From Chloroflexota bacterium (GTDB lineage Bacteria > Chloroflexota > Anaerolineae > Anaerolineales > Anaerolineaceae), in NCBI GenBank assembly GCA_012799995.1, contig JAAZKE010000025.1:6847-70846 (forward strand): DNA of 64,000 nucleotides. Reading direction: 5' to 3'. A program made the translations under genes and the position numbers. Position 1 is the first letter of the stretch. Every line of letters starts with the position of its first letter. Below the pieces are notes generated by a model. It did no database searches and was not told the origin of the DNA. It saw nothing but the letters and a program-made list of their open reading frames with translations. This document shows positions 1-63,291 of the stretch, piece by piece.

Positions 1-162
1 GTCATCAGGAGAGGCAATTGGAAAACCAGCTTCGATAATATCGACCTTTAAACGTCTTAAGGCACGGGCAACTTCGAGTTTCTCACTGGAAGTCATCGAC
101 GCACCTGGGCTTTGCTCACCATCCCGCAATGTTGTATCAAAAACTAATATCTTTTCGTTCAT
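1..162 (-). CDS. leuA: 2-isopropylmalate synthase, 5' end (runs off window)
   Basis: Manual translation of the minus strand from ATG at 162 gives [54 protein letters not shown], with the DTTLRDGEQ and EAGFP motifs of LeuA-family enzymes. Not in the ORF track. Confidence 0.9.
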
Positions 163-197
163 GGCAGTTCTCTTTCTTTAGCAATGATAGATTTAAT

Positions 198-224
198 AAA
201 AAAACCACCTTTTTGGGTGGTTTT
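198..224 (-). terminator. Attenuator terminator of the leuA leader
   Basis: Minus strand AAAACCACC-CAAAAA-GGTGGTTTTTTT: stem followed by U7, between the leader peptide and leuA. Confidence 0.85.
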
Positions 225-253
225 CATTTTGATTCAAAAAAACTGAATAGAAC

Positions 254-325
254 CTACCCAAATTGGTGTAAGTCGGTAAGGCTAAGCAACAACACATTCA
301 GATTTTTTTGGATAATTGTTTTCAT
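254..325 (-). CDS. Leu-rich attenuator leader peptide (23 aa, MKTIIQKNLNVLLLSLTDLHQFG)
   Basis: Short ORF with 6 Leu (including TTG TTG CTT), 2 Ile and 1 Val. The region around the stop codon can pair with the 5' arm of the downstream terminator. Confidence 0.8.
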   Translation of the reverse strand: MKTIIQKNLNVLLLSLTDLHQFG

Positions 326-420
326 AACTATGAAAGCATTTTAACTGGCTTTTTGAGAAAAATGTAATTTATTTTGTGAAATATGACTCGCAATATTTCT
401 TTTAGAATATATGTTCCAAC

Positions 421-449
421 TTGACACAAATCTTCTCCTGCACTAAAAT
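421..449 (+). promoter_or_regulatory. Sigma70-type promoter of the tRNA-Ala pair
   Basis: TTGACA (421-426), 17 bp, TAAAAT (444-449), about 20 nt upstream of the first tRNA. Confidence 0.85.
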
Positions 450-469
450 TGTGGAGCCTTCAGAATAAG

Positions 470-542
470 GGGCCTGTAGCGCAGTTGGGAGCGCGCTTCA
501 ATCGCACTGAAGAGGTCGGGGGTTCGAATCCCCCCAGGTCCA
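470..542 (+). tRNA. tRNA-Ala (CGC)
   Basis: Cloverleaf: acceptor GGGCCTG/CAGGTCC with G3:U70 Ala identity pair, anticodon arm CTTCA-ATCGCAC-TGAAG, T-loop TTCGAAT. CCA not encoded. Confidence 0.95.
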
Positions 543-586
543 CAGGAAATACCGCAGGCTCCTGAAAACACGAAGGACACTCATTT

Positions 587-659
587 GGGCCTATGGCGCA
601 GTTGGGAGCGCGTCTCAATGGCATTGAGAAGGTCGTGAGTTCGAATCTCACTAGGTCCA
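587..659 (+). tRNA. tRNA-Ala (GGC)
   Basis: Acceptor GGGCCTA/TAGGTCC (G3:U70), anticodon arm TCTCA-ATGGCAT-TGAGA, T-loop TTCGAAT. CCA not encoded. Confidence 0.95.
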
Positions 660-743
660 CAAACACTAATACGAAATCAGAACAGCTGCATTCAATATTA
701 AACCATTATGCTGTTTAGAATTTTTATTGTATATTTCTTAAAT

Positions 744-781
744 AAAAAACTCTCCCGATTATAAAATCGGGAGAGTTTTTT
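744..781. terminator. Bidirectional intrinsic terminator
   Basis: AAAAAACTCTCCCGATT-ATAA-AATCGGGAGAGTTTTTT between the tRNAs and a convergent CDS. Confidence 0.85.
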
Positions 782-797
782 ATTCTTTTTTACTTTT

Positions 798-1184
798 TTA
801 ATTCTCTTCTTCCTCATAATACGGTGAAATGCAAATTGCATACAAATCAACGTTCTCCGCGGGCATTAGGAATGAGTCATAATTATACCCATAGTTTGCA
901 TAACCATTCCGAGTATGTGACCAGCCATAGAAGATCAAGCCATCTCGATAGATAACAGGTTCGAAAAGTACTTTCACCTTATCGCCATATTGGTAACCTT
1001 TCTGATCAATCGGAACAGCACGCAGACAGTTGTTCTCATGATATGTTACGCAATAGGTGCCCAGTTCCTTGTAGCACGGATTATAGGTAGCCGCCTCAGA
1101 ACAGCTATTCTGCGCTGTAACCATTGACGTAATGCCCAGCAACAGCAATAATACTAACGTCAGGACAATAAGTTGTTTTTTCAT
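798..1184 (-). CDS. Small secreted protein with one InlB B-repeat / Listeria-Bacteroides repeat-like domain
   Basis: GGAGG then ATG at 1184. Signal peptide MKKQLIVLTLVLLLLLGITSMVTAQ. Pattern VTYHEN..P.D...Y..G..V......RDGL.FYGW......F.MP..NV.LYA. Confidence 0.6.
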   Translation of the reverse strand: MKKQLIVLTLVLLLLLGITSMVTAQNSCSEAATYNPCYKELGTYCVTYHENNCLRAVPIDQKGYQYGDKVKVLFEPVIYRDGLIFYGWSHTRNGYANYGYNYDSFLMPAENVDLYAICISPYYEEEEN

Positions 1185-1584
1185 AATACCTCCAAGTATT
1201 GAAAAAATTATATACAATCTATATTCAAAACTTCATTTTTTGTCAATAGAATCATTGGCTTATTTTACACCTTTTTCAGTCTAATATGCAAATTCAGGAA
1301 AATAATCACTATTTTTTCAGTTTGGCATGAATTTGGCACATTATTATACAAATCTATTCATTTTTTTTGATACCAGTATTTTAACGTGATTATAGAACTT
1401 TTTCAAGTACCTGTATGGGTCCAATATATTGAGAGACACTGGTTGCGGATTATTCAATAGACCATAAAATCCCACAAAAAAACATTCCAATCCGTCACAT
1501 CACCCGAATAATTCAATCAATCAAGAAAATAAGCTAAGTTGGACTATAATGGTCAGATATTTGAAAAAGCATTCCGGAGGAAAC

Positions 1585-4044
1585 ATGCAGCAAAAGATTG
1601 TTCCGATTTATGAACCAGTTAAAATCGAGAAAAAATGGCAGAAAACGTGGGAAGATCTTAATCAGCACAAGGCTGTTATAGATCCTGATAAACCCAAACA
1701 TTACGCGCTCACCATGCTCCCTTATCCATCCGGAAATCTTCATATCGGGCACTGGTATGCCATTACACCATCCGATGCCCATGCGCGCTTTATGCGTATG
1801 AACGGGTACAACGTGATGTTTCCAATGGGTTTCGATGCTTTCGGTCTTCCAGCTGAAAATGCAGCGATTAAGAACAACATCCACCCGAAGCAGTGGACGT
1901 TCCAGAACATTTCCCATATGCGCGAACAGCTGAAGACCATGGGATGTATGTTTGACTGGGATCGAGAGATAATCAGTTCGGAACCGGATTACTACCATTG
2001 GACACAATGGTTCTTCCTGAAACTGTACGAAAACGGATTGGCTTATCAAAAATTTTCGCCGGTGGATTGGTGCCCAACATGCAATACGACTCTCGCCCGC
2101 GAACAGGTTTGGGGAGATGATCGCCATTGTGAACGCTGCGAAACACCTGTTATTAAAAAAGATTTGAATCAGTGGTATTTCAGGATTACAAATTACGCTG
2201 ATGAGCTGAGGAGTTTTGATGGAATTGACTGGCCAGAGCGCGTTCAGACGCTGCAAAACAACTGGATTGGGAAATCATTCGGTGCGCTGGTTACGTATAA
2301 AACCGAATATGGCGATCCCCTGGAAGTATTTACCACCCGTCCGGACACATTATGGGGTGTAACATTTATGGTTCTCGCCCCTGAGCATCCGCTGGTTGCA
2401 AAATTAACCAGGAGCGAAAACAGCGAAGCGGTACAAAAATATATCGACCAGGCAAAATTCCACACTGATATTCAGCGGGAATCGCTTGACCGCGAGAAAA
2501 CCGGTGTCTTCACCGGCTCCTATGCTATCAATCCTGTGAACGAAGAGCGCATTCCGATCTGGATTGCCGATTATGTCCTGATGGGTTATGGGACAGGCGC
2601 GGTAATGGGCGTGCCGGCGCATGATCAGCGCGACTTCGAGTTTGCCAGAAAGTTCGGACTCAAAATAAGGGTAGTAATCCAACCTGAAGGCACCGAACTC
2701 CTTGATGCAGATACAATGACCGCTTCCGTACCTGCGATTGGGGCGATGGTAAATTCAGGTGATATGACTGGCACTCCGGGAGATGAAGCCATCGACAAGG
2801 TAATCGACTGGCTGGAAGAAAGACAGATCGGCAAACGCACCACTACCTATCGGCTGCGCGACTGGCTGATCTCACGCCAGCGGTACTGGGGCGCTCCAAT
2901 CCCGATCATCCACTGCCCAAAATGTGGAATTGTTCCTGTGCCGGAGAGTGAGTTGCCCGTCAGGCTTCCGGATGATGTAGAGTGGAAACCAACCGGAGAA
3001 AGCCCGCTCAGACTCCACCCAACCTGGAAACATGTGAATTGTCCAAAATGCGGAGAACCCGCAGAGCGTGAAACCGATACGATGGACACCTTTATGTGCT
3101 CCAGCTGGTATCACCTTGGATATCTAAGTCCGTATTATCCGAACTGGCCATTCAAACAGGAAGAATACGATTATTGGATGCCAGTCGATATTTACACCGG
3201 TGGTATTGAACACGCTACCATGCATTTGATTTACACGCGATTTTTCCACAAGGCTTTCCGTGATATCGGTATCCTGAAAGGGAACGAACCGATGCTGATG
3301 CTGCGCAATCAGGGCACGGTGTTGGGTGAGGACAACGAAAAAATGTCAAAGAGCCGTGGAAATGTGGTGGATCCTGACAAACTCGTTAATTCCTACGGCG
3401 CTGATACGGTTCGAGCCTACCTGATGTTCTTTGCGCGCTGGGAGTTGGGCGCGCCTTGGAATAGTTCAGGTATTGAAGGATCATCACGCTGGATCCGCAG
3501 GATTTGGTCAACTGTTCTCGAACCCGCCGAAACGAAAAAAAATATTGATCCGGAAGTTTTCAAGGTATTAAAAAGGAGAATTTACCAGACAGTCGCCTCA
3601 GTCACCCGCGATTTTCAACATTTTCAATTCAATACGATCGTTTCCAGTTTGATGGAAATGTTAAATGAAATGATCAAAGCAAAAAATGCCGGGGCTTACG
3701 GGACAACTGAGTGGAATGAGGCTGTTGATATCTACCTCAGGCTTGCTGCTCCGATTATTCCACATATCACCGAAGAACTATACGCTCTGTTAGGGAACAG
3801 TGGCTCAATCCATCTCGCTCAATGGCCAGAGATGGATGAAGAAGCAGCAAAAGAGGAATTGATCACATTAGTAGTGCAGATCAATGGCAAGCTGCGCGGC
3901 AGACTGGTTTTACCGGCTGGAAGCAGTGAAGAAGTTGTTAAAGAAGAAGCGATGAAACTGGAGTCTGTATCGGCAATGCTTGATGGAAAAGAACCGAAAA
4001 AATTAATCGTGGTTCCCAACAAATTGATCAATATCGTTGTCTGA
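1585..4044 (+). CDS. leuS: Leucine--tRNA ligase
   Basis: MLPYPSG, HIGH, GFDAFGLPAENAA and KMSKS motifs. Start moved to ATG 1585 behind GGAGG. Confidence 0.97.
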   Translation: MQQKIVPIYEPVKIEKKWQKTWEDLNQHKAVIDPDKPKHYALTMLPYPSGNLHIGHWYAITPSDAHARFMRMNGYNVMFPMGFDAFGLPAENAAIKNNIHPKQWTFQNISHMREQLKTMGCMFDWDREIISSEPDYYHWTQWFFLKLYENGLAYQKFSPVDWCPTCNTTLAREQVWGDDRHCERCETPVIKKDLNQWYFRITNYADELRSFDGIDWPERVQTLQNNWIGKSFGALVTYKTEYGDPLEVFTTRPDTLWGVTFMVLAPEHPLVAKLTRSENSEAVQKYIDQAKFHTDIQRESLDREKTGVFTGSYAINPVNEERIPIWIADYVLMGYGTGAVMGVPAHDQRDFEFARKFGLKIRVVIQPEGTELLDADTMTASVPAIGAMVNSGDMTGTPGDEAIDKVIDWLEERQIGKRTTTYRLRDWLISRQRYWGAPIPIIHCPKCGIVPVPESELPVRLPDDVEWKPTGESPLRLHPTWKHVNCPKCGEPAERETDTMDTFMCSSWYHLGYLSPYYPNWPFKQEEYDYWMPVDIYTGGIEHATMHLIYTRFFHKAFRDIGILKGNEPMLMLRNQGTVLGEDNEKMSKSRGNVVDPDKLVNSYGADTVRAYLMFFARWELGAPWNSSGIEGSSRWIRRIWSTVLEPAETKKNIDPEVFKVLKRRIYQTVASVTRDFQHFQFNTIVSSLMEMLNEMIKAKNAGAYGTTEWNEAVDIYLRLAAPIIPHITEELYALLGNSGSIHLAQWPEMDEEAAKEELITLVVQINGKLRGRLVLPAGSSEEVVKEEAMKLESVSAMLDGKEPKKLIVVPNKLINIVV

Positions 4045-18245: not shown

Positions 18246-18317
18246 ATGAGTAACGTATCAATTCGATTTATCCAAATTACCACTACTACCACTACTTTCG
18301 AGAAGCCCTTGAGATGA
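18246..18317 (+). CDS. thrL: Thr-rich attenuator leader peptide (23 aa, MSNVSIRFIQITTTTTTFEKPLR)
   Basis: AAGAGG SD, six consecutive Thr codons plus 3 Ile, directly upstream of a terminator and the ask-asd-hom operon. Confidence 0.88.
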   Translation: MSNVSIRFIQITTTTTTFEKPLR

Positions 18318-18345
18318 GGTAGATTTTAGCATTTGGTTTTACAGG

Positions 18346-18377
18346 AAACTGCCTCATCAAACAGAGGCAGTTTTTTT
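18346..18377 (+). terminator. Attenuator terminator of the ask-asd-hom leader
   Basis: AAACTGCCTC-ATCAAACA-GAGGCAGTTT then TTTT. The 5' arm can alternatively pair with GATGAGGTAG at 18313-18322. Confidence 0.9.
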
Positions 18378-18405
18378 ATTGAAAATATTATAGAAGGAAT
18401 CGCTT

Positions 18406-19836
18406 ATGGAAAATAATTTTGTTCCCCAGGACGTGTTGGTTATGAAGTTTGGAGGTACTTCTGTCGGTACGGTTCAGTCTATGAAATCGACCATTCAGAA
18501 TATCAAACGATGTAAAGCGGAACGACCGAATCTGGTAGTGGTTACATCAGCCATATCCGGCGCAACGAACGCACTGATTAAAAGTGCAACGGACGCTGCA
18601 GCCGGCAATCTGACAACGGCTGAGAAAACTACGCGTGAACTTACGGCTCGCCATCATGAGATGATTGACAAGCTGGTCAATGACCCCAACCAGTGGCTCC
18701 AGCTTAAGATGGACATCAACCGCATGCTTACAGATTTCTCCAATTTCTGCAATGCGATCAAAATTTTGGGGGAATTAAGTCCACGGGCGCTTGATATTGT
18801 TTCCAGCCTGGGTGAACGGATGGCAATTCGTGTCCTCGCTGCGGGCGTGAGTTCAGCTGGTGTTCCAGCCAAAGCAGTAGAAGCCTCTGAATTGATCCTG
18901 ACGGATGATGTTTTCCAAAGCGCGTCACCTGATATGGTGCGTACTGCCGAAAAATGTAAAAAACATTTGTACCCCTTACTTGAACAGGGAGTAGTCCCGA
19001 TCGTAACCGGTTTTATGGGTGCGACTGAAGATGGCATCATCACCACATTGGGTAGAGGCGGAAGCGATTATTCAGCTGCAATCATTGGTGTTGGATTGGG
19101 AGCAACCGACGTCTGGATCTGGACTGATGTAACCGGCGTGATGAGCGCTGATCCGCGGATCATCAAAGACGCCCACACCATCCCTTACCTGACCTTCAGT
19201 GAGATTTCCGAGATGGCTTTTTACGGTGCCAAAGTGCTGCACCCCAAGAGCGTCAAACCCTGCGTGGACAATGACATTCGTATGCGCATCTGTAACACCT
19301 TCTATCCCGATAAAATGGGCACCATTCTGGTAAAGGATTCCGAAGCCAGGGACATTGGCAAGATCAAGGCAGTCACTTCTGCCAGTGGTTTCAAACTGGT
19401 ACAGGTCGCCGGTGCCGGTATGGACTCCGGCATGGCAGTGTCCGCCAAAATTCTCAGTTCACTGGTAGATCAGGGGATTAACGTTCCCATGGTTATCGAA
19501 AGCTCATCCGAACAAGCAATTTGCTTCCCGGTAGAACTTAAAAAAATAGATAAAGTAAAAAAGACGCTGACCAGCGTTTTAGAGAAAGAAATTCAACATG
19601 AAGATATTGACCTGATCACCGTCAGCGATCAGGTTGACATTCTGACAGTGATCTGCTCCGGGCTGAAATCACATCCGGAAGTAATTGCACAAACCTTAAA
19701 TGGAATGGTTGAGAAAAAGTTTGATATCAAAGCGATGTCTTTTGGCCCTTCGGACGTATCGCTCAATTTAATCGTCAATTCAGCCGACACCAATGCGGCT
19801 TTGAATACAATCCACCAATTAATTCATAATGACTAA
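18406..19836 (+). CDS. Aspartate kinase with ACT domains
   Basis: MKFGGTSVG, VVTSA, GER, TTLGRGGSDYSAA, WTDV.G..SADPR and GAKVLHP motifs. Confidence 0.93.
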   Translation: MENNFVPQDVLVMKFGGTSVGTVQSMKSTIQNIKRCKAERPNLVVVTSAISGATNALIKSATDAAAGNLTTAEKTTRELTARHHEMIDKLVNDPNQWLQLKMDINRMLTDFSNFCNAIKILGELSPRALDIVSSLGERMAIRVLAAGVSSAGVPAKAVEASELILTDDVFQSASPDMVRTAEKCKKHLYPLLEQGVVPIVTGFMGATEDGIITTLGRGGSDYSAAIIGVGLGATDVWIWTDVTGVMSADPRIIKDAHTIPYLTFSEISEMAFYGAKVLHPKSVKPCVDNDIRMRICNTFYPDKMGTILVKDSEARDIGKIKAVTSASGFKLVQVAGAGMDSGMAVSAKILSSLVDQGINVPMVIESSSEQAICFPVELKKIDKVKKTLTSVLEKEIQHEDIDLITVSDQVDILTVICSGLKSHPEVIAQTLNGMVEKKFDIKAMSFGPSDVSLNLIVNSADTNAALNTIHQLIHND

Positions 19837-19847
19837 GGAGAAAGATC

Positions 19848-20909
19848 ATGAGTTCTAAAATTCCCGTTTCTGTATTAGCAGCCACAGGCAGCGTTGGCCA
19901 GCGATTTATCAGCCTTCTCGATAATCACCCCTGGTTTGAAGTAGTTGAGATCACCGCCTCTGACAAATCAGTCGGTAAACCTTATGAAGAAGTCTGTCAC
20001 TGGCTCCTTTCTGAATCGATGCCAGAATATGTAAAAAAGATGGAACTTCTGCCTACTGAAGCTGCATCGCTGAAGAATTCAAAGATTGCTTTCTCAGCAC
20101 TTCCGGCCGAAATCGCTGTTGAAGTTGAACCGACGATTGCAAAAAAAGGAATTTATGTCAGCTCTAACGCGTCTTCCTATCGTAAGAATCCGCTGGTTCC
20201 CATTCTCGTTCCTGAAGTGAACCCTGACCATATGATGATTCTGGAAGATCAACAGAAGAGTTATGGCTGGAGTGGCGGTATCTTCACCAATCCGAACTGT
20301 ACCACAGTTGGATTCGTCGTCCCATTGGCAACGATTGATCGGAAGTTTGGCGTGAAAAAAGCTTTCGCTTTCTCCATGCAGGCAGTCTCCGGCGCAGGTT
20401 ATCCAGGGGTCGCTTCAATGGACATTTTAGATAATGTTGTTCCGTATATTGGCGGGGAAGAGGAAAAGCTGGAATATGAACCGACTAAAATCATGGGCTG
20501 TTTTAAAGATCACAAGATTGAGAATCATCCAATCGTGATTTCTGCGCATACCAATCGGGTGCCTGTCATTGACGCACACACCATCTGCCTATCATTCTCT
20601 ACCAATGAGAAAACCGATGTTGATAGTATCATCAACGCGCTCGAATCCTATGAATTCCCAGATCTTTGTAAAGACTTGCCCAGCATTCCTTCAAAAGGTA
20701 TTGTTTATCACAGAGAACCAAACCGACCGCAACCACGGCTTGATCGCTCCACATATGGCGGAATGGCAACCCATGTTGGTCGGGTACGCCCGGACCATAT
20801 TCTGGATTTCCGCATGGTTTCTGTCTCTCATAACACAATTCGTGGCGCTGCTGGTGGCTCCATTGTCAATGGCGAATGCCTGGCAGCCTGGAAATTCGGT
20901 AAGCGTTGA
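19848..20909 (+). CDS. asd: Aspartate-semialdehyde dehydrogenase
   Basis: ATGSVGQRF, SNAS..R, NPNCTT, QAVSGAG.PG and HNTIRGAAGG motifs. Confidence 0.95.
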   Translation: MSSKIPVSVLAATGSVGQRFISLLDNHPWFEVVEITASDKSVGKPYEEVCHWLLSESMPEYVKKMELLPTEAASLKNSKIAFSALPAEIAVEVEPTIAKKGIYVSSNASSYRKNPLVPILVPEVNPDHMMILEDQQKSYGWSGGIFTNPNCTTVGFVVPLATIDRKFGVKKAFAFSMQAVSGAGYPGVASMDILDNVVPYIGGEEEKLEYEPTKIMGCFKDHKIENHPIVISAHTNRVPVIDAHTICLSFSTNEKTDVDSIINALESYEFPDLCKDLPSIPSKGIVYHREPNRPQPRLDRSTYGGMATHVGRVRPDHILDFRMVSVSHNTIRGAAGGSIVNGECLAAWKFGKR

Positions 20910-20920
20910 GGGGGCAGAAT

Positions 20921-21937
20921 ATGAAAACAGTAAAACTTGGAATGATTGGTTTTGGGAACGTGGCCAAGGGATTTCTGGAAGCGCTCCAGCAGATGGATTC
21001 CTTCTATAAGTCTGAATACGGGCTTGAATTTGTGGTTACAGCCGTAGTCAGTCAACGATTCGGCTGTGTCTACAACCCGCAGGGACTTTCGCTGGAAAAA
21101 TTAATAAAAGCTGAAAATCTGTCCCAAATTAAGGATGTCGAGCGCAAAGACTGGAATGCAATTTCGATGATTCATCAGTCAGAATCAGATGCAATCCTTG
21201 AACTAAGCTCGACCAATCTGGTCAACGGTAATCCCGCAACGCTGCACATCCAGGAAGCGCTGATGTCTGGCAAGAACGTCGTAACCAGCAACAAGGGACC
21301 GATTGCGTTGAATTTTGATGACCTGCAAAAAATTGCAGTACAAAATAATCTCAAAATCGGATATGAAGCGGCCGTCATGAGTGGTACCCCTGCGCTGATG
21401 TTGGGAACTGATCTGTTACGTCACAATGGGATTCTCTCTGCAAAAGGTATTTTTAACGGTACCTGCAACTATATTCTCACTGAAATGGAAAAAGGATTGG
21501 AGTTCGATGAAGCGCTCAAACTCGCCCAGGAATATGGATACGCAGAGACCGATCCTTCAGGTGACGTAGAAGGGCTGGACACAGCTGGCAAAGTGGCAAT
21601 CCTTTCGCAAATCATATTCAACCAAAATCTCACACCGGATAAATTCGAATTCAGCGGGATTACGAAAATTTCGAAGAAGGATATTGAGAACGGGTTGAAA
21701 GAACAAAAGCGGTGGAAACTGATTGGTGAAGTTAAAAAGGTCGATCAGGAAATCATCGCCAGCGTGAAAGCACAACTATTGCCAATGTCGGACCCGCTTG
21801 CAAATGTGATGGGGGCAACGAACGCAATCCAGTACGAGACAAAACTGCTTGGGAAAGTGACGCTGGTAGGTGCTGGCGCCGGTCGGCTGGAAACTGCAGC
21901 TGGTATTTTGCAGGATCTGATTAATATTTACAAATAA
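20921..21937 (+). CDS. hom: Homoserine dehydrogenase
   Basis: GFGNV, VVTSNKGP, E.AVMSGTP, NGTCNYIL, GYAETDP..DVEG.D.A.K and GAGAGR.ETA motifs. ATG at 20921. Confidence 0.93.
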   Translation: MKTVKLGMIGFGNVAKGFLEALQQMDSFYKSEYGLEFVVTAVVSQRFGCVYNPQGLSLEKLIKAENLSQIKDVERKDWNAISMIHQSESDAILELSSTNLVNGNPATLHIQEALMSGKNVVTSNKGPIALNFDDLQKIAVQNNLKIGYEAAVMSGTPALMLGTDLLRHNGILSAKGIFNGTCNYILTEMEKGLEFDEALKLAQEYGYAETDPSGDVEGLDTAGKVAILSQIIFNQNLTPDKFEFSGITKISKKDIENGLKEQKRWKLIGEVKKVDQEIIASVKAQLLPMSDPLANVMGATNAIQYETKLLGKVTLVGAGAGRLETAAGILQDLINIYK

Positions 21938-63130: not shown

Positions 63131-63202
63131 GCGCCTATAGTGAAGTGGATATCACGTTACCCTCCGGAGGTAGAAGCCTGAGTTCGAGTCTCAGTAGGCG
63201 TG
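63131..63202 (+). tRNA. tRNA-Arg (CCG)
   Basis: Acceptor GCGCCTA/TAGGCGT, D-loop with GGA (A20), anticodon arm TTACC-CTCCGGA-GGTAG, T-arm CTGAG-TTCGAGT-CTCAG. Confidence 0.92.
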
Positions 63203-63209
63203 CTGATAA

Positions 63210-63291
63210 GGGGGAGTGCTGGAATTGGCAGACAGGCATGACTTAGGATCATGTGCCGAAAGGCATGAGGGTTCGAGCCCCTCCTTCCCTA
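63210..63291 (+). tRNA. tRNA-Leu (TAG)
   Basis: Acceptor GGGGGAG/CTTCCCT, anticodon arm CATGA-CTTAGGA-TCATG, long variable arm TGCC-GAAA-GGCA, discriminator A. Confidence 0.93.

Follow-up and report, generated by a model that had tools for sequence, protein, structure and literature searches.

A probable leucine-responsive leader-peptide attenuator before leuACDB in a clade of Anaerolineaceae

Leader-peptide attenuation requires ribosomes close behind RNA polymerase, and in its enterobacterial leucine form, leuL, the regulatory codons are CUA and CUC. Related systems have been described in other groups. The ilv-leu operon of Staphylococcus aureus has a Leu-rich attenuator peptide (PMC5794164), his leader-peptide attenuators occur in several Firmicutes (PMC9413887), and the leuS attenuators of Streptomyces are classical ones with a terminator and an antiterminator (PMC1262725). 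T-box leaders precede leuA in Geobacter and Pelobacter and T-boxes also occur in Chloroflexi (PMC2494555), for which the papers found deal with T-box and riboswitch control (PMC2494555, PMC3766115). In the literature searched, which did not include subscription journals, no account of leader-peptide attenuation turned up for Chloroflexi or Anaerolineae, so earlier predictions may exist. Here we analyze a 64-kb stretch of an Anaerolineaceae contig (JAAZKE010000025.1), called the window below, at one end of which leuA is preceded on the minus strand by a Leu-rich upstream open reading frame (uORF) and an intrinsic terminator. A first-pass annotation of this DNA had proposed a leucine-sensing attenuator before leuA. 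With a probability of roughly 85%, we read the element as a ribosome-mediated (leader-peptide) transcription attenuator that sets the expression of leuACDB by the charging of tRNA-Leu. This core claim is supported by the conserved uORF, its invariant Leu trio, the placement of its stop codon, joint changes in the two competing helices, the leuACDB context and the absence of a T-box.

The coordinates of the elements are collected in Table 1. The uORF has 6 Leu among its 23 codons (CUG-9, UUG-12, UUG-13, CUU-14, CUU-16 and UUA-19), three of them consecutive, and is thus enriched in codons for the amino acid of the downstream operon. Re-reading of the sequence bore out the 23-residue frame and the six Leu positions given by the first-pass annotation. 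All of its motif coordinates are correct as well (CTTACC at 280-275, TTTGGGTAGGTT at 262-251 and AACCACCCAAA at 222-212), and so are its terminator arms (AAAACCACC at 224-216 and GGTGGTTTTTTT at 209-198). By itself the peptide is only moderately unusual: when all six frames of the window are considered, 3 of the 238 ATG-initiated reading frames of 18-30 amino acids (1.3%) contain LLL and at least five Leu. Both UUG and CUU are of middle frequency among the Leu codons of this genome (CUG 37%, UUG 21%, CUU 16%).

For the reality of the element, the comparison with relatives is decisive. Searching with the full-length LeuA product (533 amino acids, with the Pfam domains HMGL-like, HCS_D2 and LeuA_dimer) gave a clade, P0121-P0126, at 95, 87, 75, 74, 76 and 74% identity, respectively, separated by a gap from the next matches at 67% or less. 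The P0126 cluster includes AOH43244.1 of Anaerolineaceae bacterium oral taxon 439, which supports the placement in Anaerolineaceae. In every clade member with readable upstream DNA, a Leu-rich uORF and a terminator stand before a stand-alone leuACDB operon, which gives six lineages beside the window and seven in all (the window, L164, L165, L166, L167, L171 and L180-L185). The observation is more than chance because all six other lineages share the same set of features. Their uORFs have 22-26 codons with 5-8 Leu, and in the alignment, which the first-pass annotation had suggested together with a fold of 163-345, the Leu-rich frame is kept in all seven lineages. The trio UUG-UUG-CUU stands at codons 12-14 or 13-15 in each of them. 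A 13-nucleotide core, UUGUUGCUUA(G/C)CC (= TTGTTGCTTA(G/C)CC), is identical in 7/7 lineages, synonymous positions included, while the remaining uORF has diverged; among all loci compared, this core is confined to these leaders. Invariant synonymous sites in the Leu trio are what regulatory codons or RNA pairing would produce, not what a functional peptide would.

Between the uORF and the first structural gene lies the intrinsic terminator, which ends in seven U. Its energy is -12.7 kcal/mol in the window and ranges from -11.5 to -14.4 kcal/mol across the lineages. The distance from the terminator to the leuA start codon is 37 nucleotides in the window, and from the U tract to that codon it is 32-57 nucleotides across lineages. 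When the whole region 163-345 is folded, the minimum free energy (MFE) structure reaches -40.3 kcal/mol (z = -2.9 against dinucleotide shuffles) and contains the terminator hairpin. Pairing of the terminator is complete (100%) across the six lineages aligned for it, and its five C/G core pairs are intact in all seven, with the central pair being A-U in three lineages and G-C in four. Slid registers of the pairing are far worse than the actual one. Two tRNA-Ala genes on the opposite strand are divergent from leuA, and therefore the hairpin cannot serve to end transcription of a same-strand gene lying upstream. As for variation within strains, the DNA sequencing runs show too few changes to be of use, and the terminator indels seen in run X4 seem to represent the L164-type allele, in which the 5' arm and the loop are each one A shorter, rather than a disruption.

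The antiterminator cannot be judged from unconstrained folding of the whole leader, which alone cannot test a switch, and constrained and truncated folds were used in its place. The folds had a ribosome on the Leu trio and lacked the terminator's 3' arm, which would not yet have been transcribed. Under these constraints the MFE structure was the antiterminator in 6/6 lineages tested, formed in the window by region 2 and the segment 222-212. Energies of -11.2 to -19.1 kcal/mol were obtained for the antiterminators, to be compared with the -11.5 to -14.4 kcal/mol of the terminators. The segment 222-212 plays two roles, as part of the terminator and as the 3' arm of the antiterminator, and the two structures are mutually exclusive. 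Region 2 in turn surrounds the stop codon (UUUGGG-UAG-GUU) and is also the 3' partner of a possible protector helix. The antiterminator was scored by per-sequence duplexes, as its arm moves a few nucleotides against the stop codon from lineage to lineage and is unsuited to MAFFT columns. In the window the duplex has -15.1 kcal/mol, compared with -4.7 +/- 2.1 kcal/mol when the upstream sequence is shuffled, and in 5/7 lineages it is better than shuffles at p<=0.01. Where the terminator arm reads CCACCC, the facing arm is GGGU(A)GG or GGGGUGG; where it reads CCGCC, the facing arm is GGCGG, G(U)CGG or GGGC(A)GG. Terminator and antiterminator thus change jointly across lineages, which is supportive and not conclusive.

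These elements suggest the following course of events. The RNA would start a few nucleotides 5' of the uORF ATG, from the promoter whose -10 box is listed in Table 1, and a ribosome would begin the leader while RNA polymerase proceeds. When leucine is low, the ribosome would stall at UUG-UUG-CUU, or at Leu codons 16 and 19, and would then hide region 1 and leave region 2, which starts 21 nucleotides past the trio, exposed. The free region 2 would capture the 5' arm of the terminator (222-212) on its emergence, the terminator would be blocked and the polymerase would enter leuA. When leucine is ample, the ribosome would reach the UAG inside region 2 and mask it, the hairpin (225-200) and the U tract would form, and the transcript would end near 198-204. 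If there is no translation at all, region 1 may pair with region 2, which would also favor termination. The spacing is compatible with this course in all seven lineages: the trio is 15-23 nucleotides from the antiterminator arm, and relative to the start of that arm the stop codon is found at -2 to +13 nucleotides. With ribosome footprint sizes taken from general knowledge, a stalled ribosome would free the arm and a ribosome at the stop codon would cover it.

Table 1. Positions of the leuA leader elements, the neighboring genes and the second leader in the window, with the leader peptides of the relatives.
Feature	Position	Strand	Sequence or remark	Basis
leuA (2-isopropylmalate synthase), start of gene	1-162	minus	continues beyond the window edge	
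leuA start codon	162-160	minus	ATG	
Intrinsic terminator, regions 3 and 4	225-198	minus	GAAAACCACC, loop CAAAAA, GGUGGUUUUU	folding, seven lineages
U tract of terminator	204-198	minus	seven U	
Region 2, antiterminator 5' arm	262-251	minus	G-rich; UUUGGGUAGGUU; contains stop UAG (256-254)	constrained folds
Leader peptide uORF	325-254	minus	23 codons + TAG (ATG 325-323, TAG 256-254); MKTIIQKNLNVLLLSLTDLHQFG	sequence read directly
Invariant core	280-292	minus	UUGUUGCUUAGCC; Leu trio (codons 12-14, 292-284) and beginning of region 1	seven-lineage comparison
Region 1, possible protector (anti-antiterminator) 5' arm	282-276	minus	GCCUUAC; directly 3' of Leu trio	RNAalifold
Long outer hairpin enclosing regions 1 and 2	235-310	minus	CAAAAAAA.CUGAAUG (310-295, codons 6-11) with UAUUCAGUUUUUUUG (249-235)	MFE
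Promoter -10 box	343-338	minus	TAAAAT; 12 nucleotides before uORF ATG	conserved box
tRNA-Ala genes	470-543 and 587-660	opposite to leuA	divergent from leuA	
Thr/Ile leader uORF	18247-18318	plus	MSNVSIRFIQITTTTTTFEKPLR; six consecutive Thr and three Ile	
Thr/Ile attenuator candidate	18247-18380	plus	18247-18405 with the stretch up to the operon; operon at 18406-21937	
L164 leader peptide			MNIFIQRNLNGLLLSLPYLHQVG	
L165 leader peptide			MSKTFSKLLLIGLLLSLSIIHRGG	
L166 leader peptide			MRITSIISLAELLLTLLSDRKRAGDF	
L167 leader peptide			MKNSNNLLLNSLLLSLLKIDQTGG	
L171 leader peptide			MNQLTHASNLFGLLLTRPYTVV	
L180-L185 leader peptide			MDRLIAVNLFFGLLLSRLYTDV; variants M(D/N)RLI(A/D/T)VN(L/F)FFGLLLSRLYTDV	

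The start of the transcript deserves separate consideration. A TAnAAT box is located 7-12 nucleotides 5' of the uORF ATG in 7/7 lineages, the distance being 7 nucleotides in the oral taxon 439 lineage and 12 in the window. A TGn extension of the box was found in three of the six lineages examined for it, and the -35 region is weak and variable. From this we infer a transcription start near 331 and a 5' untranslated region of about 6 nucleotides or less. No Shine-Dalgarno sequence precedes the uORF ATG in the window or in the relatives' leaders. TANNNT about 12 nucleotides 5' of start codons is a published signature of leaderless genes and has been reported for a minority of genes in some Chloroflexi (PMC3160421). 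The -10 box is so near the ATG that translation of the leader peptide probably takes place on a leaderless or nearly leaderless RNA. The full reading, in which the peptide is translated in this way, the start codon would already be among the first nucleotides synthesized, and promoter, leader reading frame and switch would be fused into a minimal attenuator, is tentative, and we rate it at somewhat less than even odds; if true, it would imply tight coupling of translation and transcription in Anaerolineaceae. A GTCAT block at about 375-385 of the window (minus strand), some 28-34 nucleotides 5' of the -10 box, is present in 6/6 lineages examined for it and could represent a promoter element or the site of a transcription factor. 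Reading this block as a CodY-box-like site was dropped as unsupported.

As regards expression, the leader (190-335) is present in two metatranscriptomes (91% of the sampled words). The contigs span 105-308 and 167-319, and none reaches into the stretch from 325 to the tRNA genes. Such contigs cannot reveal the 3' ends of transcripts; their own ends agree with a start near the uORF, and they show at least some read-through, with an origin from DNA being possible.

Several results weigh against the attenuation reading. The uORF lacks a Shine-Dalgarno sequence, and its translation therefore rests on the leaderless or near-leaderless start proposed above, while the coupling of translation to transcription that the mechanism needs is one that we infer for Chloroflexota. 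The metatranscriptome contigs are shallow (depth about 2.5-2.8), strandless and possibly derived from DNA, and one of them spans the terminator. For the full free transcript, the MFE structure is always the terminator form, so read-through hinges on kinetics. The antiterminator duplex is not distinguishable from shuffles in the GC-rich oral taxon 439 lineage (p = 0.18-0.34) and is marginal in L166 (p = 0.06-0.07). The joint helix changes amount to about one evolutionary event between two sub-clades and carry little statistical weight, and the observed covariation score was reached by 21/500 shuffles. As for the protector helix, RNAalifold pairs region 1 with GGGUAGGU (259-252) in the seven-lineage alignment, and the protector cells are paired at 89.8% compared to 37-61% in slid registers. 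When the columns were shuffled, 90/500 controls matched the protector pairing, as pyrimidine-rich columns oppose G-rich ones, and the per-sequence duplexes gave p = 0.04-0.63.

The protector is thus plausible but unproven, and its pairing is not separable from chance. The first-pass annotation had assigned it to CUUACC/GGUAGG. The potential for such a helix is conserved, the pairing is not above shuffles, and that register is absent from the unconstrained MFE structure of the window, which contains GACUUAC.ACC/UGGGUAGGUU instead; several registers are possible in the window. The long outer hairpin around regions 1 and 2 is found in the MFE structures of the window and L164 and is absent from the other lineages, and is thus specific to a sub-lineage. 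Its pair U296-A248 becomes C-G in L164.

Other explanations have to be weighed against tRNA-Leu-dependent attenuation. The absence of a Shine-Dalgarno sequence and the preservation of the core at the level of nucleotides, not amino acids, would also fit a switch that is independent of translation, in which some protein, tRNA or small molecule would bind the core UUGUUGCUUA(G/C)CC and the G-rich segment and choose between terminator and antiterminator, the reading frame being incidental. Attenuation of amino acid operons mediated by proteins or tRNA is well established in other phyla (for the T-box, PMC2494555). We consider such a switch improbable here, as the behavior of the frame speaks against it: the ATG keeps to 7-12 nucleotides from the -10 box, indels and heavy divergence have left a frame of 22-26 open codons in seven lineages, this frame closes at the antiterminator arm every time, and Leu codons are enriched, at shifting positions, beyond the core as well. 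In addition, neither a T-box nor any other Rfam family matches, no extended conserved structure fit for a ligand-binding domain exists 5' of the core, and a Thr leader elsewhere in the window obeys the same codon logic with another amino acid. The opposite proposal would give the peptide itself a function. Small hydrophobic peptides are common, and 1.3% of random small reading frames of the window equal the Leu content of this one, so the uORF might encode a functional small hydrophobic peptide and the hairpin might be a constitutive leaky terminator or an RNA-stability element, with no sensing. This is very unlikely, since the peptides are unconserved beyond xLLL(S/T) and the conservation falls on synonymous sites. 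Nor does the hairpin suit that proposal, because it has no same-strand upstream gene to terminate (the tRNA-Ala genes being divergent), it is placed between the promoter and the operon to be silenced, and the complementarity of the stop segment to the terminator arm survives sequence change.

It is likewise hardly credible that control acts mainly on the translation of leuA, with the hairpin and U tract being secondary. Such an arrangement is described in Actinobacteria, where Leu-run uORFs pair with leuA's Shine-Dalgarno box (PMC1262725), and in L171 the Leu run does pair with the region of the leuA ribosome-binding site at -15.8 kcal/mol (p = 0.04 against shuffles). This pairing is not conserved among the four lineages tested (p = 0.81 in the window, 0.09 in L165 and 0.48 in L167), and sequestration in this manner was rejected. 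The hairpin and the U tract, on the other hand, occur in all lineages, at a distance from the leuA start codon that keeps them clear of its ribosome-binding site.

We now consider the operon under control. From L161 and L162, contigs that are identical to the window, continue past its left edge and contain the complete operon, the order leuA-leuC-leuD-leuB with overlapping reading frames is obtained; judged from these genes, leuACDB is a dedicated leucine operon. The sequence derives from biogas-fermenter and bioreactor metagenomes. L167 retains the neighborhood of leuS, the Flg_new reading frame, two tRNAs and leuA. When compared to this clade, Anaerolineae with LeuA of 65-67% identity have the order ilvB-ilvN-ilvC-leuA-leuC-leuD, in which leuA comes straight after ilvC, and no leader at leuA was found in them. 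The same holds for the Chloroflexi recovered with the 54-residue N-terminus of LeuA, where leuA again follows ilvC without a leader. Therefore, the leader is restricted to a narrow clade with an independent leuACDB, and this clade seems to have acquired it when leuACDB separated from an ancestral ilvBNC-leu operon. The first-pass annotation had extended leader-peptide control to branched-chain amino acid synthesis in the lineage as a whole. This stands for the leucine operon of the narrow clade; the wider scope, over Anaerolineae and branched-chain synthesis, was too broad given the leaderless ilvBNC-leuA relatives.

Two other routes to related leaders were given up. Synteny with LeuS in metagenome contigs was of no use, as 80 LeuS relatives (51-77% identity) are almost never near leuA. 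The 54-residue N-terminus of LeuA was too conserved as a query to rank relatives and gave matches from many phyla. In one Flexilinea sp. metagenome-assembled genome (GCA_054814565.1), five tandem units of about 98 nucleotides lie between ilvC and leuA (L179:2008-2504) and repeat the 5' end of leuA. Each unit encodes MNNTVRIFDTTLRDNRI(L/F)RL(P/S)RRGM(L/P)HEEELLL, and the ATG that comes next overlaps its stop codon. These repeats may have arisen as an artefact of assembly, or they may be a structure of unusual kind, regulatory or duplicated.

A second candidate attenuator was found by scanning the window for terminators just 5' of long reading frames. Its leader precedes ask-asd-hom, the genes of aspartokinase, aspartate-semialdehyde dehydrogenase and homoserine dehydrogenase. 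The terminator is AAACUGCCUC...GAGGCAGUUUUUUU, with a U tract from 18371, and lies 35 nucleotides 5' of the operon. As read from the sequence, the UGA stop codon of the leader is within GAUGAGGUAG, which is complementary to the terminator 5' arm CUGCCUCAUC, and in the MFE structure of the element the Thr codons pair with GGUAG. No Rfam family matches this element at gathering score. The recurrence of the design with another amino acid speaks for a general use of leader-peptide attenuation by the organism.

Some further features of the window may be recorded. A strong bidirectional terminator-like hairpin with a 20-bp stem occupies 741-784 (both strands), between tRNA-Ala(GGC) and a convergent reading frame of 139 amino acids with Flg_new repeats (798-1217, minus strand); the many sub-threshold Rfam matches at this hairpin are mere terminator look-alikes. 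The longest leuS reading frame starts at 1549 (plus strand), the start called in public assemblies is the Met at 1585, and homologues likewise align from about residue 9-21. Genes of tRNA-Arg(CCG) and tRNA-Leu(UAG) adjoin at 63131-63291 (plus strand). The tRNA-Leu isoacceptors for the regulatory UUG and CUU codons are not encoded within the window.

The Leu and Thr/Ile elements in a single 64-kb window are a genomic indication of transcription-translation coupling in an uncultivated Anaerolineaceae lineage, because attenuation of this type depends on ribosomes that closely follow the polymerase. Among the members of the clade are a human oral taxon and organisms abundant in biogas reactors. 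The leucine element is not in Rfam, and its seven lineages could seed a new family model and improve genome annotation. It also offers a natural case for attenuation by a uORF that has no Shine-Dalgarno sequence, and an example of regulatory turnover, in that most Anaerolineae relatives hold leuA in an ilvBNC-leu operon without such a leader. The advance is incremental, as the mechanism itself is a textbook one and comparable LLL leaders stand before leuA in a number of other phyla.

When compared to known families, neither the window element nor those of its six relatives match any Rfam family at gathering score. Leu_leader (RF00512) and T-box gave no match in window 1-1600 even at E<=10, and the sole leader-type match on the element below threshold was Phe_leader, in the terminator region, with 30.6 bits against a cut-off of 55. 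Over the whole 64-kb window no T-box (RF00230) or other Rfam cis-regulator reaches the gathering score, in agreement with the first-pass annotation, which had seen no T-box before leuA, leuS or alaS, and the relatives' loci have no T-box either. A T-box would give the same response, antitermination before leuA upon uncharged tRNA-Leu, but it senses the tRNA itself, by means of a specifier loop and the T-box sequence, and needs no translation.

The closest functional counterpart is enterobacterial leuL, to which the first-pass annotation had assigned the element. Both have a short reading frame in which Leu codons form a run, antiterminator and terminator hairpins as alternatives, a terminator just before leuA, a leucine operon led by leuA, and regulatory codons that are fixed and not the major ones. 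The architecture of the assignment therefore stands, whereas membership of the Leu_leader family does not. In contrast to leuL, the present element has no similarity at the level of sequence or covariance model, lacks a Shine-Dalgarno sequence, has its uORF abutting the -10 box (7-12 nucleotides from the ATG), and carries the stop codon inside or beside the antiterminator arm. The gene order here is leuA-C-D-B, and three consecutive Leu codons plus scattered ones are used, of the types UUG and CUU. Neither Leu_leader nor T-box nor any other Rfam family reaches its gathering score, so the element, which would work like leuL, is an independent analogue and not a homologue. In a similar manner, the Thr/Ile candidate resembles thrL of Escherichia coli (RF00506) in having a Thr/Ile-rich leader and a terminator before aspartokinase and homoserine dehydrogenase genes, and differs from it in that the operon is ask-asd-hom, not thrABC.

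The ilv-leu leader of S. aureus and the leu leader of Lactococcus (RF01743) are likewise independently evolved cases of leucine or branched-chain leader-peptide attenuation outside the Proteobacteria, with a Leu-rich uORF and a terminator. These Firmicutes leaders serve a combined ilv-leu operon, together with CodY in S. aureus, whereas leuACDB stands alone here, and no model of theirs matches the present element. The actinobacterial LEU element (Seliverstov et al. 2005, PMC1262725) is similar in its Leu-run uORF before leuA and in belonging to a Gram-positive-type phylum with leaderless transcripts, but it is a pseudoknot, with the Leu run paired to the leuA Shine-Dalgarno sequence, and lacks an obvious terminator; every lineage here has a canonical one. 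As for the Streptomyces leuS attenuators, leuS in the present window has no leader. A uORF with LLL followed by a terminator was also found before leuA in 6/80 unrelated genomes, namely one Verrucomicrobia, three Planctomycetota and two Betaproteobacteria (L012, L030, L037, L042, L052 and L055); examples of such Leu-run leaders are MSSPLLLLSLLLLPL in a Fuerstiella metagenome-assembled genome and MIRSGLLRRLLLLLLLEG in Verrucomicrobia UBA6053. Leucine leader attenuation thus appears widespread outside the groups covered by Rfam, and leader-peptide attenuators have arisen repeatedly. The features that distinguish the present one are modest and consist of the lack of a Shine-Dalgarno sequence, a leader reading frame adjacent to the promoter, a stop codon in the antiterminator arm, and confinement to a clade with stand-alone leuACDB. 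The element is an uncatalogued example of a well-known type of regulator.

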